The position numbers and the translations under genes are program-made. 64,000 nucleotides of DNA from Eledone cirrhosa (taxonomy: Eukaryota): the NCBI GenBank assembly GCA_964016885.1, contig OZ024741.1, positions 225,432,001-225,496,000 on the forward strand, given 5' to 3'. This document shows positions 2,218 through 62,424 of this stretch, one piece after another. The notes beneath the pieces are model-generated. The model was not told the DNA's origin, did not search any database, and saw only the letters and a list, made by a program, of their open reading frames with translations. Within the stretch, counting starts at the first letter, position 1, and every line of letters starts with the position of its first letter.

Positions 2218-3519
2218 TTAGCAATGTTTGTACATATAATTAACCTCCTATTCAACTGAACAATCATATAAATACATATATATTGATGTTGTGAACAACA
2301 GTTTCATATTTACAGGGTGGGATGGATGCGACATATATTATACGAGAATTGTACAATAATTCAAATTAAAATTAAAAGCACAGAGTGTAATACATGCAAC
2401 AGATAATACAAGGGAATAGTCTAATAATTAGAGACGCATTGAGGAAGAATGAGGACACTAGCAGTACATATGCAAGCGTGTAGAGAGTGCACATGCGTAT
2501 GAAGGAAACAAGCAAAGGTATTAGGCATAAATAAATACTGTATGGCAAAGGTATCACATAAAATAACACAGGTATACATGCATATCAAGCAAAGGTGTTA
2601 GTGTATTAAAATGATGGTGGATGTAATGTGATGGTAGTTTCTGTAGTGTTTAAATGTTTATGTGTTGAGAGTATCAAAGTTATTGGTATCTTTTCCGTTA
2701 CATATGTTAAATTATATTTTAGTTAATGTTTATATTGAATGTTTTTAGTTAGTTACAGCAATGTATTGTAAATTGGTCTTATTGTATTCTTATCCATGGA
2801 TTAGAGTTGTTCTACGGCGAGTTTTTCTAACGGTTTAATTTCCGGAAGTGAGTATGAGATCCAAAAGTAAGGGGAGCTAATGCGTAAGGGGAGGTAATTA
2901 CCTAATTAAATTAAATTAAATTAAATTATATAGGAAACTATCAATTATTTAAATTCTTTGCTCTAATATACAATATATTTTGTTACAAGTGAATCCCTTC
3001 TATATAATGTTATTTATTTATATTTAATTTTAAATACAGTCTATTTTCCTATAATACATTAAAGGTCTCATTACATTGTTATCTATCCATTACTAGACAA
3101 GATATAAGTTATGGAAAAGTGTATAGCTTTTTACAGGTCCAATTAGTTAAATCTCTTGTCTTATTAATATACATTATATTATGTTAAAAGTTAATCCCTT
3201 ATATACAATGCTATTAATTTATATATTTAATTATAAATGTATATATAATTTATTATCACATATTACATTAAATGTCTCTACATATTATATATCCATTACT
3301 GTATATAAGTAAGCTATAGTAGTTATATTATAAGGTGTTTATTTCTAATAGTTATTGTAGAGTTTAAGGTTTGAGATAAATAGGAGTTATGTAGAGGAAA
3401 GAGCTGATCAAAGATTGTGATGATGTGGGGGCTGATAAGTCCTAGAGGTAAAGTGTTAATGGTGGTGACGAATTCAAATCTGACATTGTTATATACTAGC
3501 AGCTAGGTTTAAAGTTATG

Positions 3520-12244: not shown

Positions 12245-12734
12245 GGGTATCAAAAAATAAGTATGGTATTTATAGGTCTCTACAAGTGGTAGGAGAGGGT
12301 GGGGAGTGGGATGGGTGTAGGTCATTGGTTGATAGAATAGGGAATTCATTAAAAGCTAATTCTACAAAGCTATAGTTTATTTTTATTTATTTTTGTTTTT
12401 AGAGTAACAAAGGCAGACAGAATTCTATAAACAGGTTCAGGATGGCATGCCACTCCTTGTCATTAAGTTTCTCTTAAGCTAACAGGTGTCTATAAGATCA
12501 GTGGGGGGTCAGTCATGGTAGATAGATTTAAAGGAAAGGGAGATTCTTTAAAAGCTAAATTCATTAAGGTTCTACTAAGTGACAAAGGTTTAGAGAATTC
12601 TGTAGACAAATTCAAAATATTGAGTGCATATCTTACAATTATCTTTAAATTTCTCTTAAACTATTCAACTATATGCCAAAAATCAACAGACAAATTCACA
12701 AAACACACTCACTCACACACTAGCGCGCATCCAT

Positions 12735-15216: not shown

Positions 15217-18200
15217 TAAAAGTGAAAAATAACATGGTTGACAGTAGAAACAAGGAAATTTATTTACAGTCTTACAATTGTTTCCATGATAGAATTGTCT
15301 ATAAATTGCTAAATACTGGAGACAATATAACTCAATTTACAATACATCCAAGTACAATCATTTCATCAGAGACTATTAAGAAATATAAAATATATGCGTA
15401 ACGGTAAACTTAAAAATTCAAATTACTACATCAATAATAGTATCAATGATAAATAAATAAAGGAAGGGGGACAAATGGAAATGAGAGAGAAAGAAAGAAA
15501 ATGACGAAAGAAGGAACGAAGATATAGTTAAATGTATAACCGGCAAAAGTTACGAAATCAAACTATCACATCAAAACAAATATAATTTTAATAATAATAA
15601 AGATATATATAGAAAGAGAGAAGGGGGGGGGGGTATAGCATAGGCAAAGGGGAAGGATAAGTAAGGAAGATGAGAAAGAAATAGAGGAAGATTAAGAAGG
15701 ATGAGGGAGCAGAGGAGGATAGAAATTAATCATGAATATGGGGATATGAAGAAGAGAGAAAAGAAAATACGGACGAATATACATTACTATGTAAAATAGC
15801 TAGTTTGAGATGTATTATATTATAGGATAAAATTATCAAGATAAAGTATGTTTAAGTGGAGAAATACAAAGACAAATGGTGAAAGGGTTATATATATGAG
15901 ATAATAAATGATGTAAGCACAAATAAAAATAAAAATAATGATGTTAATACAAATGTTTTTAAGTTATTCTTACGTAATTATGAAGCTTGTGATAATTTGA
16001 TATCGTAATAAGTGCTAAAAGTATAAAAAGGAATAAGGAGTAGAAAATGGAGTTAAGTTGGTCTAAAGTTCAGGAACTTCGATGCTGATTAGTGCCGGCA
16101 AAAGATAGTTCGCTCAATTCAGCTGTTAAGAAGGATTTTGCTAAAATTAAGAATTTGGAAGAGCTCCATATTACAGAGCCTACAATGGGACATACCAGTT
16201 TAATAGGCTTTAGCAGCTGATAGTATTTTCCAGCTGATCTCGTATTTAATGCCTGCAATCTTGAGTTGCCATATTTTATTGGCAAAGGTTGTTACATTTG
16301 ATTGATTCTTATTAATCATAGAATGTCTGTGCACGTATCGCCGTTTTTTTTAAAACACCAGCTATGGAACCATGCCAAGCTATCTGAGTTGATAGTACAC
16401 AAGTATACTACGTTTTTCTCAAGGCATCTGTTTAGTAGAGCGAAACTGTCGGGTAAGTGGCAATTGCATAGAAATGCCTTCCTATGCGCCGGTTCTACTA
16501 TATGATTTTGAAGATTGTTATGTATGGGCTGCGAATTAAGTTTGTTGGTGTATTGTGATGGTGTTCTTTGGCGTGTATTTGGTTGCGATGATGTAATGTG
16601 TGTGTTCTGTATTTGGTGATATGGAACTTATCTGGGGGCTACATTGATTATGGATTCTTATGTAGTTAATTTTGTGAATGTGCGATTCTATGTTGTTAGC
16701 AGTGGAGTATGATAGATAGTTTTTCTATTAAAGATTTTATGATATTTATGTATTTTAGGGAAGTGTTTGTCAACTAATTAAAAGAAAGTGAGAGGAAGCT
16801 TAGTTTTAATAGAGGAGTTAAACATTGGATTAAACCATAAGTAGTTTCTATTTCTGTATCTCCTATGTCCGCTAGTGGTATTAGAATTAGCATTGTGTTT
16901 ATTTAAATTAGGTATATGCTGCCTATTTATGCGTTTAGACCTAGGTTTGTTGATTCTATGGTTGTGGGATGTATCGTTAACATTAAGTGTCTTGTTATTT
17001 TTTGTATCAGGTATGTATTTGAGTCGTTCTTTATGGCCTGCCTTAAGTAAAGCTAAGTTGTACTAGCTAGCGTGTTCATTAAAACTTTCATGGTTAGAGG
17101 ATAGGCGCGAGAATCGAAGGGATATACTATGCGCTATGGAGTTAATATGGATCTAGGATGGTTCGAGTTATAGTCAATGTAAGCTAAATTTTCATTATTT
17201 TTATGGAAGGGTTCTATTAGTCCTGCGTTAAGGTTAAACGATACGTTCAAGAAGTTGACTTTTTTAGAGTTGGGTTCAAAAGTAATGCTTAGGCCTAAGT
17301 TATTAAAGAATTTTCTAATCTTCTTCCTTAATCTTTCTAAGTTTTGGCTATTTACGTTTCTAGGTAAAAGTAGAGTATCATCTCTATAGATTCCACCTTG
17401 TAAGTTACCAAATTTCCTATGTAAGAAATATGCTATATAAATTCCAACCAAGTCTGTGATCTGGGCTGAGTCGTTCGATCCCATAGTAATATCGAAGTTA
17501 TTCAGTCTATTTTTTTCTCTCCCAGCAGTTGTTGTCGAATTTAATGATAGTTCGTCTAGCGGCTAGTATTATTTTAATTTCATCTGCTGAAAGATCCGAA
17601 TGATTTTGGGCAAAGGATAATGCCTTATTAAGGGTGACTGGGGAGATAGAAGAGTAGTAGTCATTTATGTCAAATTGTTTAAAGTCGGACGATTCTTTAT
17701 TGTCTAATGAGTTGAACCAGTCTATTGCTTCACTTGTGTAACCCCAGAGCTTGATAGTTAGTTGTTTCTTAATTTGTGGTAATATTCCATCTAGTATAAA
17801 CTTACTAATTCTACCTATATCTGATTTTGAAGGACATATCAATCTAATAGTAGGGTTGGTTTCGAAGTTACATTTATGATCTTTCAGATTAGAAGTGGGT
17901 TCACAAGGTGTAAGAGGCTCGGTTCTATCGGATATTTTAATTTTTTTTACTATGTTAAGACCTTCTATGTTAATGGTGTTAAGTGTAGACTCTGTAGTTT
18001 TCTTGTATTTTTTATGTAATTTGAGGCGTATAAAATTGTTGTATATGGTGTATATTGTTGTATATGGTGTATATTAGATGTTTTATCTGCTTTTACAATG
18101 ATACCATTAGTGGCACATAATTTTCTTATAAGTACATTGATGTTGTTCTGTAGTTTGTTGTGGTGGGTACGTTTTTTTAATTAAATTTCCTTTATCATGT

Positions 18201-29809: not shown

Positions 29810-31519
29810 GTGTCCAACAACAAACAAAATTTGAAAGAATTGCATGACAATATTAATACCACAAACAAAGAAACAACGAACACAAAAATAACATTTGAAA
29901 ACAACATCATAACAGAAAGCAAAACAGACGACAAAGTCAACACCAATAGTTTTTCATTTGCACAAACAACAAAAAAATCATTAACATATATACCTGAAAA
30001 TATTTCAGATGTGGCACAAAGAATAAAAAACGCCAAACAATACATAACTCAAGGGGAAAATGGAACCTTATCGGTAAAAGATATTGAAAGTCGGACGGTC
30101 GTTTTCCGCACCATCAACAAACATCTCAAAAAAACCTCAACAACCAACCCAAGCAGAAATTAAAGCAATACTTACAGAAGTACGTAATGAAGCCACTTTC
30201 ATAAGAAGAGACAGGCTGTATGGAAGCCTAGCCATTATTATGAAGAACGAATCAGCGGCAAAAAAATATGCTTCGTCGCCGATTCGTTCGACAAATTTTA
30301 CCTTTTATCCATCTTATATGGGTAAAAGAACTCAGCGCATATGGCTGGATGCGATGATGCCAGATGTGGACTACTGCTGGCTCATAGCTGGCTTCATCGA
30401 TCCAGCGAATGACAACGTGATTTCCATTGGGAAAACCACAGGCAATGCGTTCAGTGGAACAGGTATAGAACTTGTAGTACAAATGAAGCCTGAACGCATC
30501 ACCCAAATACCCGACAGAATCCTATTAGAGGGCCACGGGTATATAGACATTAGCGTGGAGGGGAGAAGGCCATCCTATCATATCTGTGCAGGCAGAGGGC
30601 ACCTCAAGGCGGCTTGTCCACAACTCAACAAGAAGAAAACCATGCTACCAACACCAGCTCCACCACCACCACAACAGATAAACAAACAACAAAACTCAGT
30701 CCCACCCAACCCGTCCCTCAGTAAAACTACACCACCACCACAGCACAAACAGACACAACACATTAACCAAAAACAAAACACAGTCCCACCCAACCCCTCA
30801 CTCAATAAAACAACACAACCACCGCAGCCACAACACACAACACAGTCTAACATAGTGACATCCATCTCCCCCATAAAGAAAACCAACACGGAAACATTAC
30901 CAGCAAACATACCTCTTCCCTCCAACACTGAAGATAACCCAATGAATTCGGAGACGGAAACGGAGTCCTTCAGACAGATTAAAAGGAAAAAAAGAAAACA
31001 TGTGCAAAACACACAAGGCCAAACAGCCCTACCCAAATGTCAACACAATCCAACAAAACACAAAACACCCCTCCAGAAACAAACAAAACCAAACCTGCCA
31101 CTCCCCTCTTCGAAACACTCACACCATCCGAAAAAAAGACATTACACTATACTTACATCAACAGAAACAATAATAAATTAAATGAACTCATAAACAATAA
31201 CCCTTCGGTACAAACCGAAGGGGTAAACTTTGTTTCTTCAGAAAACTACCCACATTTAAAATTAATAAAGATCCCAATGAACCTCTACCAAAAACTAAAA
31301 AAGGAGTTTAAGGAGGACGTAGGACCACCCTCTGTCAAACCCATAAACCGCGTCCTCCTAAAAAGCTTTCCCCCTCCCCTTCCCCTCCCCAACACAACTC
31401 CAAACACCCCAACCCCACCACACACTGACGACCCCACACCACCACAAGACACCCCTTCACCCAACACCTCCGACCCCATGGAAGTCGTGCGACCCGAACC
31501 CCGGGAAGCAGAAAGGTAA
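29810..31519 (+). pseudogene. LINE ORF1 (gag-like, zinc knuckle), frameshifted
   Basis: ORF pieces 29810-30163, 30084-31181 (xHICAGRGHLKAACP knuckle), 31037-31519. Confidence 0.8.
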
Positions 31520-31552
31520 GTCTCTACACTCTCCTTTGGCTTTGCCGCCCAC

Positions 31553-34500
31553 ATGGATGTGTTAAGAGTAGGATGTTTGAATGCACGTGGCCTGGGCTCA
31601 ACTTGGAAGCAAGCAAATCTTCTAAATGACCTCAGGTCACGTGGTATAAATGTAATGGTTATCTGTGAGACTCGGATCAGCGTCGTGCGGCAGCTGGCCA
31701 CTACCTTCGATGACTTTGAGGTGCACGCATCTCTCTGTCAACCTGGAGGTGGGGGTGGGGTTGTCGTACTGCTGGAAAAACACCTGGGTCTCGCCGTACA
31801 GGTTGTTCACTCGGACCCGGAGGGTCGTTTGTTGGTGCTAGACGTTGGCAGTAGTGGAGGTGCGGCCTTGAGACTGGTCGCCGTCTACTCCCCTTTCGGA
31901 GCTGAACGACCCGACTTCTTCCAGCGTCTGGAGACTTTTCTGGGAACGTCGCGTTCCCTGCTTCTAGCGGGGGACTGGATTGACATCCTAGATGCACGTT
32001 GGGACTATGCAGGAACATGCCCTAATAGAGGGGGGAGGGGGTAACAACCTCAAGGGGTTACTCGACCGTTTTAACTTGGTCGATAGATATCGACTAGATT
32101 TTTCCAACTGTGCCAACCTGGACTTGGACGAACCACAGTGGTCAATCTAAATCGTACTTAGATAGATTCTTAGTTAGAAGTAAGGATAGGGACATATTAA
32201 GCTGTCCAGAAATGCTCACAGTTGGCTATACAGATCACAAATTAGTGACCTGTGTAGTCAACCTTGAGAGAACACATAGACAGGGTCCCGGTTACTGGAA
32301 ACTTAATTTGTCTTTACCGGCAAAAGAGGCTTACAGAGACCGAATTAGCAGATTAGTTAAGGAGAGGTTGACGGGTGCAATCGTCAACAACCGATGGTGG
32401 GCCTCTCTCAAAAGAGAGATTATAACAGAATCAATAAGTTATAGCAAGATGTTAGCTGCCGATAGGAATAGGAACGAGAAAGAATTAACAGGTAAATTAG
32501 AAGAGGCAATCAAGAGCGAAGATGTGGCCAGAGTGCTGGCATCGAGGACGGCCTTGAGCCAGTTTTTCGATGCAAAGCACGAAGGCTGCGTCATTCGAAG
32601 TAAAATACGAGCTCTAGGTAATGAGGGGGCCAAAGCCGTTGGCTGGGCCCGCGTGACAGAAGCTAAGAGTGGAAATCGATCCACCATCCGGTCTTTGCAA
32701 GACGAGGATGGATGGGTGATCCGGGAGCCTAAGCAGTTGTGCGAGGCCTTTCAAAGGCACTTTGCCCGATTGTTCGGGGGAGGCGGGGGTCCGGGCGGGG
32801 ACGTGGATTTCGGTCCATACTTTGACGGCCCGCCGCGTCTCTCGAGCGAAGAGGCAGAATCCTGCGAGGGACCAATCTCGGCTGATGAGATCGGGGATGC
32901 GCTGAGCCAATGCAGCAAACGCAAATCTCCAGGTCTCGATGGTATACCTTACGAACTTTATTTGGCAATGCCGGTCTTCTCCGAACTCCTCGAAGCAGTC
33001 TACTGCAATTGGCAGCAGAACGGGAGAATTCCTTGTTCTGTAGCCAAGGGCGTAGTCTCGCTGGTGAGGAAGGACGAGAACAAGGGGGATAGTATAAATA
33101 ATTTTCGGCCCATAACCCTGCTAAACACAGAGTTAAAGATTTTGGCCAAGGTGTTAGCAAAGAGGTTGGCGCTTGTCGTGGGTAACCTGGTGGGAGATGC
33201 GCAGGCATGTGCTATCCCATCCAGGTCCATTCACGACAACCTCCACCTCATGCGATACATCATAGAGAGGGTTGGCAACAAACCCGGCTTCGGTGGGGCC
33301 CTGATCAACTTGGATCAGTCTAAGGCGTTCGATAGAGTCGACCATGGTTACCTAGATGCGGTGCTAGCGGCGGCTGGGTTCGGCCCTGTTTTCAGAGGCT
33401 GGATCACTGCCTTACATAGCAACCACATCTGTTCTAGGATCAAGGTGAACGGCTACATTTCGAAGCCGTTCGAAATCATACGATCCATTCGACAGGGGTG
33501 CCCTCTCTCCTCCCTTCTGTACGTATTGACTCTCTAGCCTTTACTGAAGAAGTTGGAGTTGTTGTAGGGTATCCCCCTGGAACCAGGATTGAGCAAAGCG
33601 GTGTCGGCCTACGCCGATGACGTAACAGTAATGGTATCGACCGACTCGGAGATCGAGGCGATCGGTACCTTACTGGAGGAATACGAAAGGTTGTCAGGAG
33701 CGAAACTGAACAGGGAAAAAACCATCGGGCTGCAACTCGGAACGTGGAGAAGCAGACCGATGCCTCCCGACGGTGTCGTCGGACACTGGACGGAGGGCCC
33801 GGTGAAGTTGTTTGGGGTCTGGTTTGGACCGGACCTCCAGGTGGAAAAGAACTGGGGCGAGGTTACGAGCAAGGTGTTTGCACTGACCCAGAAATGGGCC
33901 AAGTGTAAGCTGTCCCTGAAAGGTCGGGCGGAGGTGGCGAACATTTACATAGCGTCCGTCACCTACTACCGCCTGACTGTCGTGCCTTGCCCTAAGGAAA
34001 TACTCACCACCATGGAACGCATGCTCTTTCAATTTCTTTGGAAAAAGCGCCCTCCTATGGTGAGAAGATCCATCTGCTGCCAACAACCTTCGAAAGGAGG
34101 GCTGGGGATGCCGTGGTTGATGATGCGTAGGCACGCATTAAGGCTACGGCACCTACAGGTATTCCTCACTGGTCAACCGGTGTGGGCTCCGTTCGTGAGA
34201 CGAGCCTTTCCGAGACTCGTCTCGCTCACCGAGCTGCAGTCCTGGGTCAAGCAAAGATCCGGAAAACTGGGCGACTGGCACACTGAGTGTGCCTAGGTGC
34301 TCAGTGCTCTCTGGCAAGCGGACCCGGCCATCGGTGGAGAATCCACCTCGTCATTCTATAGAGGGCTGGTGGCTAGCAGGGGCGATGACACCCTTGGAGA
34401 GTCGCTGGACATGGAAGAGGACGAACTGGCCAGCCTGTTCGGTAGGACTTTCGGCCCGGGACCAATGGACAACTTCCAGAAGTCACTGGCCTGGCAGTGC

Positions 34501-34991
34501 TACCGGGAGCTCTGCCCGTTCGAGAAAAGCTCTACAGACACGGGCGCCCGGGCAGGGATCCCTCGAAAAAGATTTGCCCTAGATGCGTGCGTCACGAAGA
34601 AACCGTTGCGCACGCATTGGTGCACTGTCCGGGCGTGGCTGATCTGTGGGGCTACGCCGAACGACTGCTGTCGCGGGTGGCGCCGATTCGATTGACCGCC
34701 GAGTCCCTGATGACAATCAAGCCGCCTCCCCTCTTCACAAAGGAAGCAAAGGCGGTTTTTCTGTGCGTAATAGCCATGTTGAAAGAGGTTGTTTGGTGGA
34801 CACGATTGAAAGGTCTGAGGTCAGGCAACTTCCTCTCTGGCCATAGTCTGGTCTACTTCTTCCGATATCACTTCGGAAGAAGGATAAGAATGGAGAGAGA
34901 GGTGCTTGGCCACAGGCAGTTTTATGAAAGGTGGGTGATAGTGGCGAGAATGACTCGTGTAAATGGGCCTTCTCTGTATACCATCCCGTAG
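31553..34991 (+). pseudogene. LINE ORF2 (APE endonuclease + reverse transcriptase + zinc motif), disrupted
   Basis: LNARGL, AGDW, SYLDRF, TDH (APE); KSPGLDG, FRPITLLN, LDQSKAFDRV, RQGCPLS, AYADD (RT); CPRC..ETVAHALVHC. Confidence 0.95.
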
Positions 34992-35301
34992 GTAAAGAAG
35001 TGAAGCAGAGGGGAGCACCTCTTCCATGTGCTCCCCGGGCAAAGGATTGCACACTTTTTCGGGGGTGTGTGCAAGCCCCATTACGTCCCCTCCCTTTTGA
35101 GGTTGTTTTTGATTATTTTCTTTTTATACCCTTTTTACTCGGTTTTATGTAAACTCCCCCTTTGTATTTGTCCCTTCTTTTTATGCCTTTATGGTAAATA
35201 AAGAAATATATCTATCTATCTATCTATCTATTTATTCATTCATTTATCTATCTAGTACTTTTCCTTTCTCTCTCAGTATATGCACAAACACACACACACA
35301 C

Positions 35302-36030
35302 TCAGACTCAGAAGCTCCCGCGTCTTGCGACGCATGAGGCAATCATAGTGTTCCATTGCGTTCGGTCAGCAGCCAGTTGCACAGCGTCCCGTCATTTGTC
35401 GCTCGCAGGTCCCGCTCAACTGTCTGGCGCCAGTTCATTTTGGGTCGCCCTCTCCGTCTGCTTCCCTGCGGGCTCCATTTAAGTACTTGGTTCGCCAGTC
35501 TCTCCGGGGGATGTCTCAAAGCGTGTCCAAACCAGCCCAGGCGTCGCTTGCAGATGGTAGAAGAGACTAGCTGCTGGTTGGTGCGGTTCCTGACTTCCTG
35601 GTTTGTTACATGGTCACTCCATTTAATCCCCAGGATCTTTCGCAGACACCTGGAATCGAATGCGTCCAACTTCTTCTCTTGATATTGTGAACAATATCAA
35701 TGTCGAAGCAGAAAGCTTAGGTCTCAATATCAGTGCCAAGAAGACCAAAAGCATGTTATCTGGGACACACTCACCACCAACCAGTGTCTTCATTGAACAG
35801 GGGGAGGTGGAGATAGTGGACAACTTCACCTACCTAGGAAGCTCCATTAACAATGAGGGCACCATGGACAGTGAACTGCAATGTAGAATGGGAAAGACTT
35901 CAGCAGCATTTAACCAGCTTGACAAGATCTGGAAGAGCAGGAAGTTCACCCTCAAAACAAAGATGAGATTCTACAACAGCAACGTGCTGTCCACACTCTT
36001 GTACGGAAGTGAAACATGGCACCTTAAGAC
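35302..36030 (-). mobile_element. RTE-like LINE 3' fragment with inverted 5' segment
   Basis: Minus 35343-35675: DAFDSRCLRKILGIKW...RRLGWFGH...RRRGRPK; plus 35676-36030: GLNISAKKTK...FTYLGS...LLYGSETW. Confidence 0.9.
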
Positions 36031-36075
36031 ACACACACACATATATATAAGTATATATTTATATATGTATGCACA

Positions 36076-36147
<72 letters not shown>

Positions 36148-36447
36148 CGTACCCATAGAGGTAATAACAGCACTGTACATACACACAGACGCATACACAC
36201 ACATACATATATGCATACAGATATCGATATTTCTACATCTATGTATACATCTGTGCAGACTGTGTGTGTGTGTGTGCGCGTTCGTTCACCAAATTATCTT
36301 ATCCAGTACTGGAAGCAAAACATTAAGTCTACAACTGCTGTGCTAGAAATAGTGCATTATGTTGATAATTTGCGAATATATATAAAGGATCTTTCATTTC
36401 AGTGAAAGCACGCAATAAAAAAATGATGCTGAAATATTATTATTATT

Positions 36448-37753
36448 CGCCGAGGTTGACTTTGCCTTTCATCCTTACGGGGTCGATAAAATAAAGTACC
36501 AGTAATGCACTGGGTAATTGCTGGCCTTGTGCCTAAAGTAGAAACAATTATTATCATTATTATAAAGGGGCGTGGATTGGCAGTATCAGTAGAGGGTCGG
36601 ACGCCATGCTTTCCAGCATAGTTACGTCCCTTTACGATCTGAGTTCAAATCCCGCGGAGGTTGACTTTGCCTTTCATCCTTACGGGGTCGATAAAATAAA
36701 GTACCAGTAATACACTGGGTAATTGCTGGCCTTGTGCCTAAAGTAGAAACAATTATTATAAAGGGCCGTGGATTGGCAGTATCAGTAGAGGGTCGGACGC
36801 CATGCTTTCCAGCATAGAGTTACGGTCCTTTACGATCTGAGTTCAAATCCCGCCGAGGTTGACTTTGCCTTTCATCCTTACGGGGTCGATAAAATAAAGT
36901 ACCAGTAATGCACTGGGTAATTGCTGGCCTTGTGCCTAAAGTAGAAACAATTATTATCATTATTATAAAAGGGCGTGGATTGGCAGTATCAGTAGAGGGT
37001 CGGATGCCATGCTTTCCAGCATAGTTACGTCCCTTTACGATCTGAGTTCAAATCCCGCGGAGGTTGACTTTGCCTTTCATCCTTACGGGGTCGATAAAAT
37101 AAAGTACCAGTAATACACTGGGTAATTGCTGGCCTTGTGCCTAAAGTAGAAACAATTATTATAAAGGGCCGTGGATTGGCAGTATCAGTAGAGGGTCGGA
37201 CGCCATGCTTTCCAGCATAGAGTTACGGTCCTTTACGATCTGAGTTCAAATCCCGCCGAGGTTGACTTTGCCTTTCATCCTTACGGGGTCGATAAAATAA
37301 AGTACCAGTAATGCACTGGGTAATTGCTGGCCTTGTGCCTAAAGTAGAAACAATTATTATCATTATTATAAAAGGGCGTGGATTGGCAGTATCAGTAGAG
37401 GGTCGGATGCCATGCTTTCCAGCATAGTTACGTCCCTTTACGATCTGAGTTCAATTCCCGCCGAGGTTGACTTTGCCTTTCATCCTTACGGGGTCGATAA
37501 AATAAAGTACCAGTAATACACTGGTTGATTGCTGGCCTTGTGCCTAAAGTAGAAACAATTATTATAAAGGGCCGTGGATTGGCAGTATCAGTAGAGGGTC
37601 GGACGCCATGCTTTCCAGCATAGTTACGTCCCTTTACGATCTGAGTTCAATTCCCGCCGAGGTTGACTTTGCCTTTCATCCTTACGGGGTCGATAAAATA
37701 AAGTACCAGTAATACACTGGTTGATTGCTGGCCTTGTGCCTAAAGTAGAAACA
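36448..37753 (+). repeat. Head-to-tail tandem array of SINE family A (6 full + 1 partial copies)
   Basis: Units start at ~36567, 36763, 36971, 37166, 37373, 37569, joined by ATT-rich linkers. Confidence 0.95.
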
Positions 37754-37889
37754 ATTATTATTATTATTATGGTTCAGTCTTTCAAGACATGGATCACATC
37801 GCTCCTGTAAGTTTGTTCTATTTTCCCTGATATTCAACCTTTTGCATTGAAATGTTGATATTTATTTGAAGCTAAGCAAACCTATATCC

Positions 37890-39500
37890 TTGTGAGCTGG
37901 TTCGTGTAGTTCCACTTGAAGCCCTTAGGGGCCAAATCTGTGTTTGTTTTTGAAACACGGCCCTCAATTTTCTGTGAAAATTATGATGGCGGACAAAAAT
38001 GTTGCGTCCGCTAAACGGAATGGCGGGTTATTCATAGAGTGGAACAGCCAAAATTCTGAAAACAATAGCAGCAGCAACAGCGACCAAAATTTATCTGGAA
38101 AGCAGACTTTCCAGCTCTGTCAATGTTTACCACGGTGAATCCCACCACTACAACGGTAAGCGTGACCAACACAACAGATACCTTCCCCACCATTCCCACT
38201 ACTGAAACAACGGAAACGAAAAACAAAATTAAAATGAATACATAAATCATAACATAAATCATAACATGAACAACAATAACAACAAACCACCATCAGCACC
38301 GGATGCCAATAGACAAAACAATTAGGGAGAGCTTCCCCAACAACATGAGAACACCCAATGTAAAAGCCTCAAATAGGTTTTTAAAGAGGTTCCCAAAGGA
38401 ACTCCAGCAACGAGTAATGGACGTCGAACCACTTTGAAATATCTACCCATCCCTTAGTCGGCCTGGAATGGGAGACGGGGTGGCAGTGCTGTTTAGGAAA
38501 GACCTGAGTCTCAGGTACGGACGATCTTCCTGGACGCGGACGGTAAGCTCGTGGTCCTAGATGTGAACAATAGTTAAGGTAGTACTTTTAGATTAGTGGC
38601 TGTCTGGGGAGGACGGCCAGATTTCTTTAGGCGTCTGGAGGCCTGTCTAGGAACGCTTCGCCCTTTGGCGTTAGTGGGGGACTGGAACGGCATCTTGGAC
38701 ACACGCTGGAACTGTGTGGGAATAGCCGATAGAAGAGCGGGTGCAAAAGCCTCAAAAACCTGCTCAGCCACTTTCAACTCTCTGACAGGTACCAACTAGA
38801 TTTCCCTAATGCACCAGTGTGGACCTGGACAAAAAGCTTAAGGACATCTAGATCGTACTTAGGTTAGTGGATAACGATGGTATGTCCACAATTGCATACT
38901 GTGGCCTATTCAAACCACAAGTTTGTGATCTGCATGGTCGACCTAGATAGAACATATAGACAGGGACCCGGTTACTGGAAGCTTAACGCGTCGTTCCCAG
39001 TGATCTGAATAATAAATTAGTTAAGCGGCAGTTTAGGGGAGCCATCGTCAATAACAGGTGGTGGGGCGTTATCAAGAGAGCGATTAGAGTAGAATCCATA
39101 GTATTCAGTAAAGAAGTAGCGATAGGAAAAAATAAAACGGAGGGGGAGTTAGTAACTAAATTAGCGATTAAGAGTGGCATTGCATTTTGAAACACGAAGG
39201 TTACATTGTCATAGCTAAGGTGCGTGCTCTAAGAAACGAGGGAACTAAAGCTATTCGATGGGCCCGCGTGGTGGAGGCGCAACGTGGTACCAAAACCTCA
39301 ATTCGGTCTTTGACGGAGCGAGACGGACGCACGCTAAACGATTCCAGGCAGATGTGTAAGGCCCTTCACCAGCAATTTGCTCGGGTGGCCACTCTCACCA
39401 AGAAATGGGCCAAGAGGTAGTTATCCATGAGAGGTCGGGCTGAGGTGCCGAAAGTGTACATCGGATCCGCCATCTATTAACCCCTGATCTTCGTGCAGCT
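37890..39500 (+). mobile_element. Decayed, internally deleted L1/Tx1-like LINE
   Basis: RPDFFRRLEACLGT..VGDWNGILD, GPGYWKLN, HEGYIVIAKVRALRNEG; joins the pre-RT region directly to post-RT LTKKWAKR. Confidence 0.85.
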
Positions 39501-40463
39501 GTTGGAATTTAGTTTTTTTTACCCTGGATATTATTCGGCGGGGCTATTGGAGAGACATGGACTACCAAATTTGAACGTTTCGATTCGTTTTCTGGTGCTA
39601 TACTAATATTGACTCCTCGCTGCCTGGTCAAATAAAAAGAAATAGAAAAGTACAGGTGTTTCCACATCTGATTGAATTATTGCGTATTTACTGAACAGAA
39701 ACTATATGTGTATGGCATATCTTGAATTGTATAGGTAGGGGCCGATGGAAGCTAAATGAAATACCATTCAAGTGAAAATAAAAAGTGGTTTAAAAGGGAG
39801 AAAAAGTGGACCAGTGGACCAGCATGCCCAAACACACACCACAACAAAGGGCATTGGAGTTTCCCACTTATAATTGTTGCAACAAACCAACACATTAGTA
39901 GCATTGTTGTGGGGGATAGCGAGGCTAAGATGCTAGAATAACCAAGCACCGTCGCGAGGATGTAACACCTGATACATCGGTAAGAGGAGCCGCCAGCATG
40001 GGCAAAAACCTCCCAGCTGCCCGAAACGTCCCGGACACCACAGACTGAAAAAAAAAAAAAAATAGCTTGCCGATAATTTCTGTATTTTAAAATCTTATTC
40101 CGTTTAACTACGGATGTAGTGGCCTTCACCTTCGCCGCAACACTCAGGATATGGGAAAGAGGTAATTACTCGTTCCTCGGGGAAGCAATAACTATGTCAG
40201 TGTTTAAATGTCAAGAGATTACTCAATATATAGATGAAGTGAATAGTAGCAATGTGGAATCAAGTGAACGCTAACTGCATATTGATGTCATTCAGTGTGT
40301 ATTATATAGACAGCCTCAAGTTCCTCTCACAGCGAAACACTGCTAATATCAACTGCCTAGGGTATTGTTCTGCCATCTGAGCTGTGGTGAATAGTCCTGC
40401 TTTGTCATTGTCTGCTTTGGGAACAATTGAGAACGTCGACGTTGTGAGGTTGCTTTTGATAAT

Positions 40464-42920
<2,457 letters not shown>

Positions 42921-50122: not shown

Positions 50123-52535
50123 TTCTTCTGGTTTTACCAATAGAGAGAGAGTCGGTTTCTAACCTAAACACAAGACTCTCTCATTGGAATTTACACAACA
50201 TCAACTAGGTAGATTATGTATGTATGCATGCATGTGTAGATATGGATGTTACTGTATGTGTGGATGTGTATGTTTTGAGTTGTATATGTGCATGTGTATA
50301 TGCTTTGCATCTGTACATGTGTATATGCAGTTAATGGATGTAACATTTTTGGAATGTTTTTCATATTTTTACTGTTCCATTAATGGATTGTACTTGTAAT
50401 TTCCTAACTAGTTGTGTTCTTTCTGTTCCTGTGAAGCCTAGCTTCTCAAGATTTGTATTGAGGCAGTTACTAACATACCCCAGTGCCCCAATAATCACAA
50501 GCATAAATCTGATGGTGTAATCAGGGTGGAGTATCTGCACATTTCTCATCAGTTCTGCATAAATATTCTCCTTTTCACTAATCTTTGATATTATATTGGC
50601 ATCTGCTGGGCAGCTAATTTCCACTACTGTGCATGCTTTCTTCTCCCTGTCCAATATCATAATGCCTGCATTTTATTGGGGTTTTTACTGGAACATTCCA
50701 CCAGTACTCTTTCATATTATGTACATGGATGTCTTCCACATTGCTGTAGCTTTTAATGTGTTTATTATCGGAGCTATCTTTTTTACGAACTGCATTGTAC
50801 AGTGTTTTGGCCAGTACATCATGCCTCATAGGTAGATAGTACCGCGATGACATCTTTGGACAGCTGCTGATGACATGGGTAATATCCTCGATGTTAGTTC
50901 TGCAGAGTCTTCACTTGTTATCACATCTAGGTGTTTTGCCTGCATCCCTATCTCTTTTGTGAATCAGGTATTTCGTGTTAATCTCCTGTTCCTGGATTGC
51001 AAAAGCGTATCCTTCAAAGTGGGAACCAATATAGCGGTTGTTGGTCCAAGATAGACTACTTTCCTTATCTATATTACTCTCACTCTGGACTTCCTGGCAA
51101 CATATCCATGCATGATTTTTTGCTGATAGGCATGCAGTTTTTCATCTTATTCGTTTCATCTTATCCGTTTCATGCAGATAGACTTGCTCGAGAAACGGGC
51201 TCCTACGCTTCGAGGTTCGTAGATGTTGTCAGAGAGATATGATGCGACATTCAAATGCTGTCTGGACTGATGTTAGGCCTCTGCCTCCCTGCTTAAGTTT
51301 TCAAGTAAAGGCGGTCTATGTCACTGTTGATGTGGAGGTCTCCGTTGTTGTTCAGTATTTTTCGATTCCGACATCAACTGCTCGGATTTCGTCTATCGTC
51401 CAATTGAGTATTCCAAACGTTGGTGTTAGGACAGGCACAGTAAACACATTATGAGCCACTGTTTTGTTTTACGCAGAGAGTTCCGATGACCAGATCTTTC
51501 TTAATCGGGTGTAGTATTCCCTGGTTACGCGTTCTTTATTACAGATACCATTATTGGATATGTTCTAATCTATCCCCAGGTATCATTAACAGTCCTCATC
51601 AGATATCGGTGAAACAGTTAGGCTATTGATGACAATGTTGCTAGATTGGGTTGTTGTTTTTCCCCGCTTTACAGTCACGTATGAGCCTTTATCTTGGCCA
51701 AACTCCATTCCTATATCCTTCGAGAAAGTTGTAACCAGGTCAAGATTTTTCTTCATCCCATCCATGTTCTTGGCATAGAGTTTCAGATCATCTACAAAGA
51801 AATTATAGGTTAGGTTCGTATTTCTGTCCTCCTGTGAGCCAATGATGTATCGCTCACAGAATCCCTTGAGCAGAAAGGACAAGGGGTTTAATGACATTAT
51901 GAGTAATATCACAGAGAGACTGTCCCCCTGAAATATACCCCTGCAATATTTTATTTTATTTTATCAGTGAAAATAGAGTCCTCCCTTTCTGTCTTTAACC
52001 TTAGGATAGGAGCCCAAGAAGAAGACAGCATCTCTATGGCTCTGACAATAATGTCTGGGACTTTAGCAAGTTGGAGGGCCTCTATCATCCAAGAGTGGGG
52101 AACAGAATCGAAAGCTTTCTTGTAGTCCAGCCAGACTGTAATCGTATTCCTCCTAAGTTGTCGAAGCTCCGACATCGCAGTTTTGTTGATTAGGAGTTGT
52201 TCAGCACATCCCCAAACCCTTTTCTTTCCAGCTGCTTGTTCATCTGTGATGATGTTATTATTTTCACAGTGATCTTGGAGGAATAGGTTCAGGCAGGCTG
52301 TATACATCTTATACATCAGTTTCTGGCATGCAATGGGTCGGTAGTTTTTTGCCAAGTGGGTGTCTTTGTTCTTGGGGACCAGTAATGTTTGTGCTAATGT
52401 CAACCATCCTGGTATAAGTGTATCTCCCTTAAGAACTTTTTGGTAGAGTTCAGTAAGATACCTCCGATAGAATATCAGTTTTTTGTACCAGTAGCTCAGT
52501 GCACAGTCTTTCCCCACTTTAAAAATATTCGTCAC
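50123..52535 (-). mobile_element. R4/Dong-like RLE LINE (copy B: RT, CCHC/RHD, RLE)
   Basis: NYRPIAC, WLDYKKAFDSVPHSW, FFVDDLKLY, RHDVLAK, ILDREKKACTVVEISCP..EKENIY..IIGALG. Confidence 0.9.
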
Positions 52536-52556
52536 GCACAGGCATTTATTAATAGT

Positions 52557-52612
<56 letters not shown>

Positions 52613-55600
52613 GAATGCCATGGTTGACGGAGGCTCGGCTCTGTAAGGTATTGTAAATTTTGACCGCTATAACAATTGTAAATTGTTTAAAATTTTAACC
52701 AAATTGTAGACAAAAACACCCTCATCCTCGTGAGAGGGGTCTTTCTGCCCGTTATTTGGCCCTTCGGGGTTAAATAACCGCTTATTGGGGTTTTGTGCCC
52801 AATATTTATTTTAAACCAAAAAGAAACATGGCTACGAAAAAGAATTTTCACAAGTCACTCCCACTCATTCCGTCTTCTTCTTCCTCGATCGTCACTACAG
52901 CAGAGAGAAGATTGTCTCTCTCCCTCCCTTCTCTAAATGTGTCTCTCTCCCTCCCTTATCTTTCGCAAGCGACGCCAGTAAAGAAAAATAGTTTACAAAA
53001 TCACGTGAAAAACATGGAACATTTCTCAACGACGACGACAACGACGAAAAAGGTGTGCGGTAAATACGAAAACCCATTTCATTCGTCTGACGTCATGAAT
53101 AATAGCATTAGCAGCCGTAATAACAGCACCAGCAGCAACAGTGACAAGGAAAACAACAGTAGCAGCCGCAACAGCATCAGCAGCAGCATAAACAACAACA
53201 GCATTAGCAGCAACAGCAACAACAACAGCAGCAGCAGCAGCAACAGCAACAACAACCACAGCAACAGCGGCGGCGGCAGTCGTAGTACCAGCAGAAACAA
53301 CAAAAGTAACAGCAGCTCTGACGACAACAACAACAACAACAAGAAAGAAAACCAATCTCGTTTGCAGGTATCGCAAAGAACCTGGAAACCATCCGTATAA
53401 CAAATGAGGAATTACAGGAAGCAAAGAAGATGGTGACGAAAACCGGACACCGAGCAATCTGCAAGGCAGCCGAAACCTTTTTCGAAACCCAACAGCACTG
53501 TACAGTCACGTACCGTACAGTAAGCACAACATCCTGTAGGGTTGAAAGAGTCACAGAGGCTCAAATACAAAAAGCCTTAGGGTCTGTGTGACAGCGTAAA
53601 ACGCATATCACCCGAGGCAAGAAATATGCCACCGTGGACGTGCTTTTTGCCACAACCCAGGAGACAAAGGCTCAATCCTTAGTGACCCTAAGGAGCGAGG
53701 AAATGGTGTTGGTGCCCTCCTACTGCGGATAAAATATTGTGAGGGTCAAACTGACCCACGCCCCCCCCCCCCCCCCCCCCCCCCGGGATGGCCCCTTTTG
53801 GCTGGCTGCGTCTGTCCTCGTCGGAATCGAGGACAAAACAACTGTACTGCAAGTACAGAAAAAAGTACGAGAAGATTGGGTCGGCACCTCCATTGAGATG
53901 TTAATCCAAACCAACCAGGAGTGCATCAAAGCTATCCCGGATGTGATAGACTTCGATAACGGCACTCAACTGTCCATAAGTGTTGAGGGCAAACGCCTGA
54001 AATGCTTTCGCTGTAGATCGAAGACTCACCTCAGGGCCTTCTGCAATGAGAAGACCCTGAGAAAGGAGAAAACCCCCTCCTTCCGAAACCGGCTCCACTG
54101 CTACCAACAACAGGACAGGCGGCAACCAGGAAGGATAGGTCCGTGGCACCTATGCCCAGGCCACGGAAATCAAGAACAGCAGCAGCAGTGGAAGTATTAA
54201 CAACAACAACAGCAATACCAACTAAAGCTGCAACAGAGACTCCACTGCAAACACCACCAACAACAACAAGTGAAAGTGTGGAGCTGGTACCCATCCCCGA
54301 CCTCACACAATCGGACATGGAGTGTGAGGTGAGGAGGGATGGCAAAAGGTCGCAAGAAGGCACAAACGCAGAAGCAGCGCATCGTCGCCTTCGAAAAGGG
54401 AGGAAAGAAACGAAAACAGGGTAAAGGCTACTGCAAAGAGACTTACAGCAGCAACACCACCCACACCATCACCACCCACACTAGCACCACCATCACCACC
54501 GAAGGCAACCTCACCGCCAACAATAACAACACCTTCAACACCACCACCACAAGCACCAACATCGCAAACACAACAAAACACACACACCCAGCAACAACGA
54601 CAAGAAAATAGCAGAACCACACCCCACCCCCAGAAAAACAAATGCACAGCAATAAATACACACAACAAGAAACTAATGACTTACATAATTGAACACACAG
54701 ACATTTCACAGCACGTCTACATAATACCAGCACCAATCAAAACACCAACGAACATAAGACTGGTACGAATAGCACAGAAACAATAGACAAACATTAAAAC
54801 GAAATTCCCCAACGCAGTTGGTGATTTCAGAGACCTAGGAGGGACTCTCAACCGGAGAGTATATTCGGATATACTCACAGAAGAGCCGACGACCAGCCGA
54901 ATGGACGATTCAACGGTCCCTTCACCAGACGATCAAGTGAAAAGGGATGGAGAAACCATCCTTCCTCTACGAGAAGTAAGGTAAGTGGTCTTTCCCATCT
55001 TTTCCACTCCATTTCAACATGACCTCACTCAGAATAGGCAGCATAAATGCGCGTGGCTTGGGGTCGTCATGGAAGCAGGGCCACCTGATCAACGACCCCA
55101 GATCACTAAACATAGATGTAGTGGCCATCAGCGAGAACAGAATCTCCGAAGCACGGGCCTTCGCACCGATCTCCGGCGGCTACGATGTGTACGCATCTCC
55201 CTGCCGTCCCGGATCGGGGAGTGGAGGTGCTGTGCTTTTTCGGAGAGGTTTGGATCTCGCCATACGGTCTATCTTCCTGGACCCAGAAGGTAAATTGGTG
55301 GTGCTGGACGTGACCAGCGGAGAAGGGCAAGCTTTCAGGCTAGTGGCCGTCTATGCCCCCACAGGAGCAGGGCGGCCTGATTTCTTCCGGCGTCTGGAGA
55401 CCTTTCTAGGAACGTCCCGCCCTTTAGTGTTAGTGGGCGACTGGAACGGGATCTTAGATGCACGCTGGGACTGTGTGGGATTAGCGGATAGGGGAGGAGG
55501 GTGCAAGAGCCTCACCAACCTGCTCAGGCGTTTTGAACTGTCTGACAGGTACCGATTGGATTTCCCGAATGTGCCAATGTGGACTTGGACAAATCGCATA

Positions 55601-58088
55601 GGGTCATCCAGATCATATCTAGATAGAGTATTTTGTAGGGAAATAGATAGGTCTAGCATAGGCTGTCCACAATTCAAGATAGTCAGCTACACGGACCACA
55701 AATTCGTGATCTGTATGCTTGACTTAGATAGGCTTCATAGACGAGGACCCGGCTACTGGAAGCTAAACGCGTCTTTACCAGCGCGCAAGGCCTACAGAGA
55801 CCGGATTAGCGAACTAGTTAAGCGAGCGTTGACGGGGGCCATCGTCAACAAGTGGTGGTTTGCTCTGAAAAGAGCGATTAGAATAGAGTCCATTAGGTTT
55901 AGTAAGGCTTTAGCTATAGAGAAAAATAGAGCAGAGGGAATATTAGTTAGAAAATTAGACGAGGCGCTTAGCAAAGGCTTCGCGACCGATGTACTTGCGG
56001 CGAAATTGGCCCTTGAACAATTCTTCAATGCAAAGCAAAAAAGGCTACGTTGTCAGAGCTAGGGTGCGTGCTCTCAGAAACGAGGGGACGAAAGCCATTC
56101 AATGGGCCCGAGTGGCGGAGCCGCGTCGTGGCAACAAAGCCACGATCCGGTCTTTGGTGGACCACGACGGGCGCATGCTACTCGATCCCGGGCAAATGTG
56201 TGAAGCTTTTCAGCGACACTTCGCTCAAATGTTCGGGAGCAGCGGCGGGCCGGATCGAGGGATGGACTTTAGTATCTACCTCAACAGACGGCCGCGGCTC
56301 TCAGCCACTGAGGCGGAGTGTTGCGAAAAGCCGATAACAGCAGCTGTAGTACGGGAGGCAATGACTGGCTTCACAAGGGGTAAATCGCCTGATTTGGATG
56401 GTCTGCCCTATGAACTTTACGTGCAGATGCCAGACTTGTTCGGAGGCCTCTGGGCGGATGTCTACTGCAACTGGCAACAGAACGGGAGAATTCCCAGCTC
56501 TGTGAGCAGAGGAGCGGTGGCGCTGCTGAGAAAGGATCCGAACAAGGGGGATAACAGATAATTTGAGGCACATAACTCTGCTTAAAACAGAGTTCAAGAT
56601 TTTGGCCAAGGTGCTACTCGGCACCTGGAGAGGCAGGTCCATGCCGTCCAACAACGTCGTCGGGCGCTGGACGGACGGTCCGGTTAAATTGCTAGGGGTC
56701 TGGTTCGGTCCGGACCTCCAGACGGACAAAAACTGGGACGAGGTGACGAGCAGGGTGGCTTCTCTCACCCAGAAATGGGCGGAAAGGAAGCTATCCCTGA
56801 AAGGTCGAGCGGAGGTGGCTAACGCGTACTTTGCGTCCGTCATCTGCTACCGCCTGACCGTCGTACCTTGTCCTAAGCCCCGCCTGACTGCGCTGGAGCG
56901 TTTGCTCTTTCGCTTTTTGTGGAAGGGACGCGCTCCGATGGTCAGGCGGTCCATCTGCTGTCAACACCCGCTTCGTGGAGGGCTGGGAATGCCGTGACTG
57001 ATGATGCGCAGACACGCGCTCAGGCTACGACATCTCCACCTCGTGATCAGGTGTGGTCGCCGTTTGCTAGACACGTCTTTCCCCAGCTCGTCTCCTGGAC
57101 GGAGCTGCAGTCCTGGGTCAAGCGAAGACCGAGAGGGAGCGCTTGGAGACTGGAATGTCTTCAGGCGCTCACAGCCCTCGACCAATCGGGCAATGTGATC
57201 GGTGGAAACTCCACCTTGGCGTTCTATAGAGGATTAGTGGAGTGGAATAGCTACGACGTACTTGGAGAAACTCTAGGCGTCGACGAAAATCAACTAGCCA
57301 ATCTCTTCGGAAGGACTTTCGGGCCGGGGCCTATGGACAACTTCCAGAAATCCCTGGCCTGGCAGTGCTACCGGGGAGCTTTGCCAGTTTGGGATAAACT
57401 CTACAGGCATGGAGGTGCCGTCAGCCGGGCATGTCCGAGATGCGCGCAGGGCGACGAAACCGTCCTGCACGCACTCGTCCAGTGTCCGAGCATTGCTGAC
57501 TTGTGGGTTTATATCGAACACCTGCTGTCGGTTGTAGGACGGATCCGGCTATCAGCTGAGTCCATCGTGAGGATTGCCCCGCCCTCTCCCTTTAGCCGGG
57601 AAGGGCAGGCAGTTTTTATCTGTCTGTGGCCATGGCGAAAGAGATAGTATGGTGGACACGTTTGAAAGGGCTGAAGACGAGCACTTACCTCTTCGGTGAT
57701 GCCCTGATTAACTTTTTCAAATTTCATTTGAAAAGGAAAATCAGGGTAGAGAGGGAAGTGCTCTCTTCCCAGCATTTTGTTGAAAGATGGGTGAGAGAGG
57801 CAAGAATGGCCCGAGTGAATGGGCCTACTCTGAGTATGTGTCTGTAAATTAAAGGTGGAAGAGGGCACTTGCCCTGGTGGTCAGGGTCACTGAGGCTTTT
57901 TAATGGGCTTTCTCTACGAATGTCCCTCGGAAGTCTCCCCCTATTAGGGAATTTTTTCATTGTTCTATTATTACATCCTCTGTTTCTTGTTTTTTACACG
58001 CAGAAATGCCCATTTGTACTGCCCTGTATTGTCCTGTACTGTCCTTAATGTCTACTTTGTATAGACCCTTGTGGTTAATAAAGAAAGC
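52613..58088 (+). mobile_element. L1/Tx1-like LINE (second family) inserted in (TTA)n, RT core deleted
   Basis: ORF1 remnants with knuckle CFRCRSKTHLRAFC; ORF2 APE 55019-56062; post-RT and zinc regions; AATAAA at 58077; ATT repeats on both flanks. Confidence 0.92.
55019..57847 (+). pseudogene. LINE ORF2 (APE region open, RT catalytic core missing)
   Basis: INARGL, VYAP, VGDWN, SYLDR, TDH; KILAKVL fused directly to LGTWR; CPRCAQGDETVLHALVQC. Confidence 0.9.
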
Positions 58089-62190: not shown

Positions 62191-62393
62191 CATTCATTAA
62201 ACCTAATATTAATTCATACATTATATATACATTAAAGGATACTGTATTCAGGTATTTGGAGATGTTATTTTATTAAGAAAATTAGTGTATGCCTATCTAA
62301 AAGGACTTATTAGAAAACCAATGAAATAAAATTTCCAAATTCCAGAACACAATATCACCTATTATTCTTTCGATTGGCAATATCGGACGGGCG

Positions 62394-62424
<31 letters not shown>

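Follow-up and report, generated by a model that had tools for sequence, protein, structure and literature searches.

We propose that the LINEs of Eledone cirrhosa described here carry, at the end of ORF1, a motif that is very probably under selection as a U1 site in some capacity, and we tentatively interpret it as a conserved U1 snRNP site that may give rise to an ORF1-only RNA, control polyadenylation, or both, with ORF2 being translated from its own AUG. The initial annotation of the window (the whole 64,000-nucleotide stretch of DNA that was analysed) had placed a perfect splice donor over the ORF1 stop of one LINE copy, and this is borne out in both of the decayed copies in which the junction survives. 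The ORF1 stop overlaps AG/GTAAGT in each (GTAAGT at 31516 in copy 1, with AG before it) and, when scored against the donor consensus MAG/GTRAGT, where 9/9 is perfect, this is the sole 9/9 match in either element; the consensus 5' splice site expected of a U2-type mini-intron is therefore present in both. Perfect donors are expected by chance at 0.07 per element, or about 0.0005 per 40 nt. The octamer is identical at 8/8 positions between the two copies, compared with 11/30 positions in the flanks and 115/233 fourfold sites, and a third junction with the identical octamer is found in a public contig of run X4. The elements are made up as follows, in window coordinates.

30078..31519, + strand: central and C-terminal portions of copy 1 ORF1; decayed, in two frames, with a decayed zinc knuckle
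31513..31521, + strand: copy 1 5' splice site, perfect and complementary to U1; cut before 31516, with the ORF1 stop (31517-31519) inside
31522..31552, + strand: copy 1 inter-ORF spacer; pyrimidine-rich, 77% C+T
31553..31555, + strand: copy 1 ORF2 start codon; position the same in relatives
31564..31566, + strand: copy 1 candidate acceptor, a weak AAG, within ORF2 codons 4-5
31553..34991, + strand: copy 1 ORF2; endonuclease, reverse transcriptase and C-terminal zinc finger, the frame broken by stops and frameshifts
34992..35207, + strand: copy 1 3' UTR; weak resemblance to a donor at 34992, AATAAA at 35197
54978..54986, + strand: copy 2 counterpart, again a perfect 5' splice site; the ORF1 stop (54982-54984) overlaps it, and the cut falls before 54981
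54987..55018, + strand: copy 2 inter-ORF spacer; pyrimidine-rich, 78% C+T
55019..57847, + strand: copy 2 ORF2; start at 55019, first AG (55031-55032) in CAG, reverse transcriptase mostly deleted near 56612
57974..58003, + strand: copy 2 3' UTR, pyrimidine tract and CAG forming a candidate distal acceptor
37990..39640, + strand: copy 3, same clade, internally deleted; ends approximate, ORF1/ORF2 junction lost

These elements have the ORF2 layout of the L1 clade (L1/Tx1), with an N-terminal apurinic-type endonuclease, a reverse transcriptase and a C-terminal zinc finger. The Pfam matches are PF03372 in copy 2 (E 5.8e-13) and, in copy 1, PF00078 (E 2.3e-15) and PF13966 (E 7.3e-5, below the curated cut-off), and intact relatives match all three. 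The decayed window ORF1 gave no Pfam match of its own, and it aligns with ORF1 of the L001 and L048 relatives across a CCHC zinc knuckle that matches PF00098 in those relatives, so that the separate, knuckle-containing ORF1 of the L1 clade is also present; copy 1 ORF1 at 30126-30623 in addition matches ORF1 of intact relatives (tblastn, E 5.5e-8 and 1.2e-6). The Tx1 label of the initial annotation is presumably appropriate, and the closest named protein, from Argonauta hians, is 51% identical. Each 3' end has AATAAA and a few A (35197 in copy 1, 58077 in copy 2). The TAA at 31517-31519 can be taken as the true ORF1 stop because an extra base at 31026 in other copies brings the upstream ORF1 piece into frame, and in copy 2 the frame continues from the main ORF1 piece.

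Conservation of GTAAGT across further copies, which had been put forward as a check, extends well beyond the window and the X4 contig, to relatives whose endonuclease is about 39% identical to that of the window family. In the intact L001 family the donor lies just after the ORF1 stop in 28/28 distinct junctions, located with an anchor independent of the donor, these copies being tandem and hence not independent of one another. Among the 25 junctions without indels, the seven motif columns past the stop are invariant while 11/17 nearby ORF1 fourfold sites vary. L047 also has its donor after the ORF1 stop, with an 8/9 match. In a tree built on the endonuclease region, without a named Tx1 or L1 reference, the L001/L047 group is the sister group of the window family (support 100/99), at a path of about 1.8 changes per column. 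The sister family L048 is intact without an ORF1 donor, which makes the site dispensable in one lineage, and has instead a TAATG stop-start overlap. The clade thus shows three junction designs: a TAATG overlap, a donor after the stop, and a donor through the stop. The relatives are arranged in head-to-tail arrays; the 3 loci searched of 46 gave no Rfam match, and neither metagenome scans, viral contigs nor a first genome scan with P0009 revealed a relative. That the motif has no function and is inherited sequence matching the donor consensus by accident is very improbable indeed. In its favour, the carriers are all of common descent, three of the bases in the window family come from TAA, L048 has no GT here, and the decayed copy L050 has a broken one; however, even the two window copies differ at about half of their neutral sites, and the motif, with its low chance expectation per 40 nt, has been kept across a deep split.

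The relatives carry a second donor 15-40 nt past the ORF2 stop, in which GGTRAGT is invariant in 5/5 aligned relatives and such variation as there is stays within the U1 consensus. This bears on whether the octamer might be a translation signal that merely resembles a donor, i.e., a termination context or a ribosome tether for reinitiation, with the spacer perhaps binding an RNA-protecting protein past the ORF1 stop. We regard this as quite improbable. The motif does always sit either on the stop or in the gap separating it from the restart codon, 5-38 nt ahead of the ATG, and the family that lacks it has the TAATG overlap in its place, but the U1 consensus is matched on both sides of the cut, the register relative to the stop shifts between families, and the motif recurs past the ORF2 stop, where nothing restarts.

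How might a U1 site at this position be used? Under the explanation that we tentatively favour, a fraction of transcripts would be spliced from the ORF1-end donor to a downstream acceptor, removing the ORF2 start or the whole of ORF2 and leaving an ORF1-only message. An exon junction close to the stop codon does not trigger exon-junction-dependent decay, and since only a few bases would separate the predicted junction from the ORF1 stop, this message would be expected to escape it. The unspliced RNA would serve as the transposition template, with ORF2 produced from its own AUG by termination-reinitiation, and ORF1 protein would then be made in excess of ORF2 protein, much as Gag is in Ty1/copia elements; U1 bound at the end of ORF1 may also restrain early polyadenylation. 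Pointing to ORF1-only use, if tentatively, is the position of the sole perfect donor on the ORF1 stop, together with its conservation in relatives in which the stop precedes the donor. In L001 and L047 this order means that splicing cannot fuse the frames; it would leave ORF1 whole and take out the ORF2 ATG. A start at the AUG of ORF2 itself is supported by retention of that ATG in 28/28 L001-family junctions and by TAATG in L048, an arrangement known for reinitiation (PMC5972666). Against ORF1-only use, no distal acceptor is common to one position: copy 1 has nothing to match the 3' UTR acceptor of copy 2, and among the relatives a distal acceptor is common only to L001, L031, and L050. LINE 3' UTRs are T-rich in general (PMC5381506). 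Also counting against it are the lack of AATAAA or ATTAAA soon past the donor, the lack of retrotransposed copies spliced at the donor among the loci and window copies, and the intact state of L048 without the site.

A somewhat unlikely alternative is that U1 binds without splicing, the donors at the ends of the ORFs suppressing cryptic or early polyadenylation or aiding elongation, with full-length RNA as the result. The donors are conserved where neither near nor distal acceptors are, the inter-ORF spacer is the sole non-coding place within the element for such a site, the second donor of L001 lies about 430 nt ahead of the poly(A) signal, and U1 blocks premature termination in the retrotransposon EVD (PMC5580714). 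On the other hand, little that would need suppressing is visible: in 4/4 elements checked for the canonical hexamers AATAAA and ATTAAA, neither occurs from the ORF1 donor as far as the 3' UTR. Where AGs follow a perfect donor, moreover, it is usually spliced at some rate. Copies retrotransposed after splicing at the donor were not found among the loci or the window copies, which speaks for this alternative, and none of the internal deletions of copy 2, copy 3, L051, and L052 begins at the donor.

The initial annotation had gone further, proposing a mini-intron that fuses ORF1 to ORF2, and of this proposal the donor is real and is conserved beyond two copies, while the purpose of fusion is unsupported, given that the stop precedes the donor in L001 and L047, that the ORF2 ATG is kept, and that the acceptor Arg codon is found also in the donor-less L048. 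The geometry itself was described correctly. The next AG past the donor in copy 1 (31565-31566) forms bases 1 and 2 of ORF2 codon 5, beyond the ATG at 31553, and removal of 51 nt, ending in a weak AAG, joins the two frames; in the divergent copy 2 the segment from the donor (54981) to the first AG (55031-55032) measures 52 nt and terminates in CAG, and here too the frames join, since both cuts are in phase 2. The AG-free, pyrimidine-rich spacer is likewise present in the window copies, but the absence of AG is at chance level (65% and 71% of shuffles lack it) and is not kept in L001 or L047. The relatives with the donor after the stop have a spacer of 14 nt that is not pyrimidine-rich and no good nearby acceptor in common, and the first AG in L001 (n = 25) is a CAG at 33 nt in 15 junctions, a GAG at 45 nt in nine and a GAG at 9 nt in one.

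It is unlikely that, in the window family only, an intron of 42-52 nt is removed from some transcripts to give ORF2 as an ORF1-ORF2 fusion, as in the plant Ogre elements, and equally doubtful that one LINE lineage turned an ancestral U1 site into a true intron of this length, with unspliced RNA as template. The frames join in 2/2 window copies despite 51 versus 52 nt, copy 2 has a good CAG, and the stop inside the donor and the longer pyrimidine-rich spacer are found only in the window family, including the X4 contig; by eye, L001 also has a weak overlapping GT 5 nt upstream in a phase able to fuse the frames. An in-frame join is, however, a one-in-three outcome that a single inherited Arg codon fixes. 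Roughly a third of ORF2 AGs fall in the phase of the acceptor, and AGR makes up 53% and 48% of ORF2 Arg codons, so that an AG within an Arg codon is not beyond chance. This position is Arg in 14/27 close protein relatives and Lys in six. The acceptor is not conserved as YAG, being AAG in copy 1 with an out-of-frame TAG 5 nt on. Animal branch points are degenerate; by eye, no YTNAY stands at a usable branch distance, the one in copy 2 being a few bases from the AG. The ORF2 ATG and a hydrophobic residue before the Arg would be intronic, yet both are kept, the hydrophobic residue in most of the 27 proteins and Met three to four residues before the Arg position in 18/27, a count weakened because gene callers write Met for any start.

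Intron-less copies would be expected under fusion because L1 proteins mobilise the RNA that encoded them (PMC5860796). Among the six joints listed from the contigs of four runs, contigs of unknown kind that drop rare variants, none joins 31515 to 31567, the listed joints including some of depth 5-9 against summed depths of 30,000-41,000. The alignment of one X4 contig (record 27) begins exactly at 31565, as a spliced form would; judged by its length, it could just as well be an unspliced form 9 nt shorter. No fused ORF1-endonuclease protein was found among 188 candidates or the best 150 representatives, a negative weakened by length limits and candidate caps. P0126, which has a long N-terminal extension, was set aside as it crosses a spacer-like stretch and retains the ORF2 Met, and is not a clean fusion. 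Stop-codon readthrough was rejected since the ORFs share a frame only in copy 1, as was evasion of HUSH-type silencing, splice sites around a stuffer being described as not protective (PMC8770142).

The favoured use of the site for an ORF1-only RNA resembles that of Ty1/copia elements (Arabidopsis EVD, Drosophila copia, and barley BARE1), in which splicing gives a structural-protein-only RNA, the unspliced RNA is the template, and a strong U1 site where the structural ORF ends, as found here, also suppresses early termination (PMC5580714). Those are single-ORF LTR elements in which splicing creates the stop, whereas ours are two-ORF LINEs with a stop of their own and putative splicing, and unlike copia they have no early canonical poly(A) hexamer soon after the putative intron. 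In the Ogre Ty3/gypsy elements of legumes, which the fusing intron of the initial annotation resembles, an intron between two ORFs is spliced in a subset of transcripts to give the whole polyprotein, as demonstrated experimentally (PMC6317226). Ogre is an LTR element with a spacer of about 274 bp, in contrast to 42-52 nt and a retained ORF2 ATG here, and the in-frame join, present in 2/2 window copies, does not run through the lineage, being absent from the L001 family and L047. Human L1 RNA likewise has splice signals, located in the 5' UTR and ORF1, and its spliced forms can retrotranspose in cis, the resulting SpIREs being dead-end copies that make up about 2% of full-length L1 (PMC5860796); in the present LINEs, by contrast, deep lineages retain a perfect donor where ORF1 stops. 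In SART1, through UAAUG coupling, and in L1, through termination-reinitiation, ORF2 is translated from its own AUG after ORF1 termination, and the TAATG of L048 is of the SART1 kind, although the excerpted account mentions no U1 site for either element (PMC5972666). Thirteen recently active L1-Tx1 families are reported from Octopus vulgaris, compared here by description, and the excerpted report does not mention splice signals in them (PMC13282606).

In the literature searched, no such donor site is described for a LINE, nor was an Ogre-like spliced fusion found described for any LINE. Splice signals in LINEs are usually taken as accidental because a spliced template gives dead copies. A perfect donor at the ORF1 stop over deeply split lineages, with a second past ORF2 in the relatives, suggests instead that a LINE makes purposeful use of U1 snRNP, and offers an answer to how the ORF1-to-ORF2 ratio is set in two-gene LINEs outside mammals. 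It also means that sense-strand copies carry strong cryptic donors into the host introns of repeat-rich cephalopod genomes.

The junctions of the two decayed LINE copies in the window share one geometry, and the coordinates from which the initial annotation had proposed a mini-intron fusing ORF1 to ORF2 were right when rechecked. The positions, read from the sequence (the third copy from sequence comparison), are:

31516, + strand: GT of the copy 1 donor (5' splice site)
31517-31519, + strand: copy 1 ORF1 stop
31553, + strand: copy 1 ORF2 ATG
31565-31566, + strand: first AG 3' of the copy 1 donor
54981, + strand: copy 2 donor
55031-55032, + strand: first AG 3' of the copy 2 donor
near 37990-39640: third copy, junction lost

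Taking out the 51 nt from donor to first AG in copy 1 joins the frames, and removal of the 52-nt segment of the divergent copy 2 is likewise in frame. Both copies contain endonuclease, RT and zinc-finger domains, their ORF2 sequences are about 66-69% identical, and the closest named match is an Argonauta hians protein, from which the window is probably octopod. In both, an in-frame CAG also lies ~120 nt 3' of the donor, in the same place within ORF2 (31635 and 55101), and its use as an acceptor would remove the first endonuclease motif. Elsewhere in the window a tandem array at 36420-37760 (unit ~210 nt, about six copies by eye) repeats a sequence resembling a SINE fragment, and there are further decayed retroelement fragments, which by their motifs we take to be Penelope-like, Dong/R4-like and RTE-like:

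3496-5832, 17134-18073, 51586-52559, 58340-59503, 35627-36030 and 62330-63379: decayed fragments of other retroelements

Judged from its sequence, the donor at the ORF1 stop is a perfect 5' splice site under selection. Neither window element has another sequence that matches MAG|GTRAGT at 9/9, where shuffles predict about 0.07 per element, and the donor octamer is identical at 8/8 positions between copies 1 and 2, against 11/30 in the flanks and 115/233 at fourfold sites; an octamer present by chance is thus the least probable explanation, and a very improbable one. The weak parts of the original claim are the spacer without AG, the AG in an Arg codon and the fusing phase, because composition and codon use give them often: an AG-free spacer is expected in 65-71% of shuffles, AG begins about half of the ORF2 Arg codons, and roughly one ORF2 AG in three falls in the fusing phase.

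The donor is more widely conserved than the initial annotation knew. In a scan of bacterial genome assemblies, two metagenome-assembled genomes proved to contain animal-like contigs that bear LINEs, with 47 loci between them; 46 of these belong to one intact family, arranged head to tail and about 39% identical in the endonuclease. In a tree built from ORF2 residues 1-350 (22 rows) the window family, on its own long branch, and the relative families form one clade (support 100/99). The intact-family junction reads ORF1 stop, G, GTAAGT, 7 nt, ORF2 ATG, and both donor and ATG are kept in 28/28 distinct junctions (from 68 matches in overlapping loci; the copies are tandem, not independent). Across the 25 indel-free junctions all 7 motif columns are invariant; of the 7 spacer columns that follow, 3 vary, as do 11/17 fourfold sites in ORF1 and 5/17 in ORF2. 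The separate decayed family L047 has the stop, 3 nt, GTAAGT, 5 nt including an AG, and ATG; L050 retains the motif with a broken GT, and L051 has lost its junction. No donor is present in the intact family L048/L049, whose two ORFs overlap through TAATG and which nevertheless carries AGG at the supposed acceptor codon; its SART1-type stop-start lies at L048:6063-6067 and 12622-12626. Hence the seven lineages with readable junctions comprise five with the donor, one with a broken donor and one with none. That the octamer acts as a translation signal we regard as improbable, given its match to a 5' splice site.

The arrays themselves (L001-L046, L048 and L049 in G001, a bacterial metagenome-assembled genome) comprise two intact LINE families in head-to-tail order on contigs of up to 94 kb, with 69 endonuclease matches, and are host contamination of the assembly. 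They are possibly telomeric or site-specific; no Rfam match was found between array units in the 3 loci searched. L047, L050 and L051 lie on one animal-like contig of 539 kb (G002:C16), which has microsatellites and decayed LINEs and is likewise part of a bacterial metagenome-assembled genome.

The evidence speaks against a fusing mini-intron as the donor's general purpose. In the intact array family and in L047 the stop lies 5' of the donor, and therefore splicing cannot fuse the frames and can only take away the ORF2 start, which is kept. The intact-family junctions have no acceptor in common: of 25, 15 have their first AG at 33 nt as a CAG, 9 have it at 45 nt as a GAG and 1 has it at 9 nt, again as a GAG. 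The AG-free, pyrimidine-rich spacer is confined to the window family. Among the 27 closest proteins reaching the acceptor position (leaving out 2 cluster duplicates, those of <35% identity and 3 later starts), the acceptor codon encodes Arg in 14 cases, Lys in 6 and some other residue in 7, is preceded by Leu, Val or Ile in 20, and has a Met 3-4 residues N-terminal in 18; this comparison is supportive and not decisive, because many copies are decayed and any start codon is entered as Met by gene callers. No fused ORF1-ORF2 protein was found among the proteins searched.

Contigs of four public runs (one study, at most two samples) were aligned on window 30800-32300. A third junction, at a loose end before 31551 in the run X4, repeats the octamer next to a pyrimidine-rich spacer of another sequence, with ~42 nt from donor to the same AG provided the remainder is colinear. 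The predicted intron-less joint was absent among the 6 joints listed, although joints of depth 5-9 do appear there and summed depths over the spacer are 30,000-41,000; because contigs drop rare variants and 24 of 564 loose ends were listed, this is no proof of absence. Among 40 of 229 letter differences listed, none fell in 31511-31570. One X4 contig begins aligning exactly at 31565; by its length it would be an unspliced form shortened by 9 nt, and it may instead be a spliced one. Fusion within the window family, with its in-frame segments on one side and the missing protein and joint on the other, ranks third and is unlikely.

A second donor occurs in relatives 15-40 nt 3' of the ORF2 stop (L048 and L050 match at 9/9, L001 and L047 at 8/9; L001:6748, L047:6487, L048:9573, and 15 nt after the ORF2 end in L050), with GGTRAGT invariant in 5/5 aligned sequences; the window copies have weak matches only. 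Strong pyrimidine-tract acceptors occur in the 3' UTRs, with no single shared position when aligned between elements, and in L048 a very strong tract plus TAG ~140 nt beyond the second donor resembles a 3' UTR intron. Between the poly(A) signal and the ORF1 of the next unit lie ~250 nt (L001:7180-7450, L048:9970-10270), which in both families close with C-rich motifs resembling each other plus a second AATAAA and may be a terminal repeat or a target sequence common to the two. Two strong donor-like motifs also lie in the 5' UTR (L001:1010 and 1048), 260-300 nt before the ORF1 start.

The reading we tentatively place first is that U1 would bind the donor, that a share of the RNA would be spliced from it into an ORF1-only message with its junction close to the stop, and that unspliced RNA would serve as template and make ORF2 by reinitiation. 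The closest working likeness is the Gag-only strategy of Ty1/copia, where one U1 site both permits splicing to a short RNA and prevents premature termination (PMC5580714); unlike Ty1/copia, the LINE elements examined yielded no early poly(A) hexamer. U1 binding without splicing and acting on polyadenylation, which would need no shared acceptor, ranks second, and we consider it rather doubtful. The counterpart of fusion is found in plant Ogre elements (PMC6317226). In the portions available, splicing of human L1 gives dead-end copies in cis (PMC5860796), TART has antisense introns (PMC1636488), a survey of vertebrate L1 spacers treats IRES and lacks 'splic' (PMC5381506), and an octopus LINE paper covers RTE and Dong and lacks 'Tx1', 'intron' and 'splic' (PMC9115989). 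The literature searched, which lay outside Repbase reports and most subscription journals, described in its available text no conserved donor at the ORF1 stop of any LINE. In a class of elements for which we found no earlier description of it, the donor would represent a variant of a strategy of a known type.
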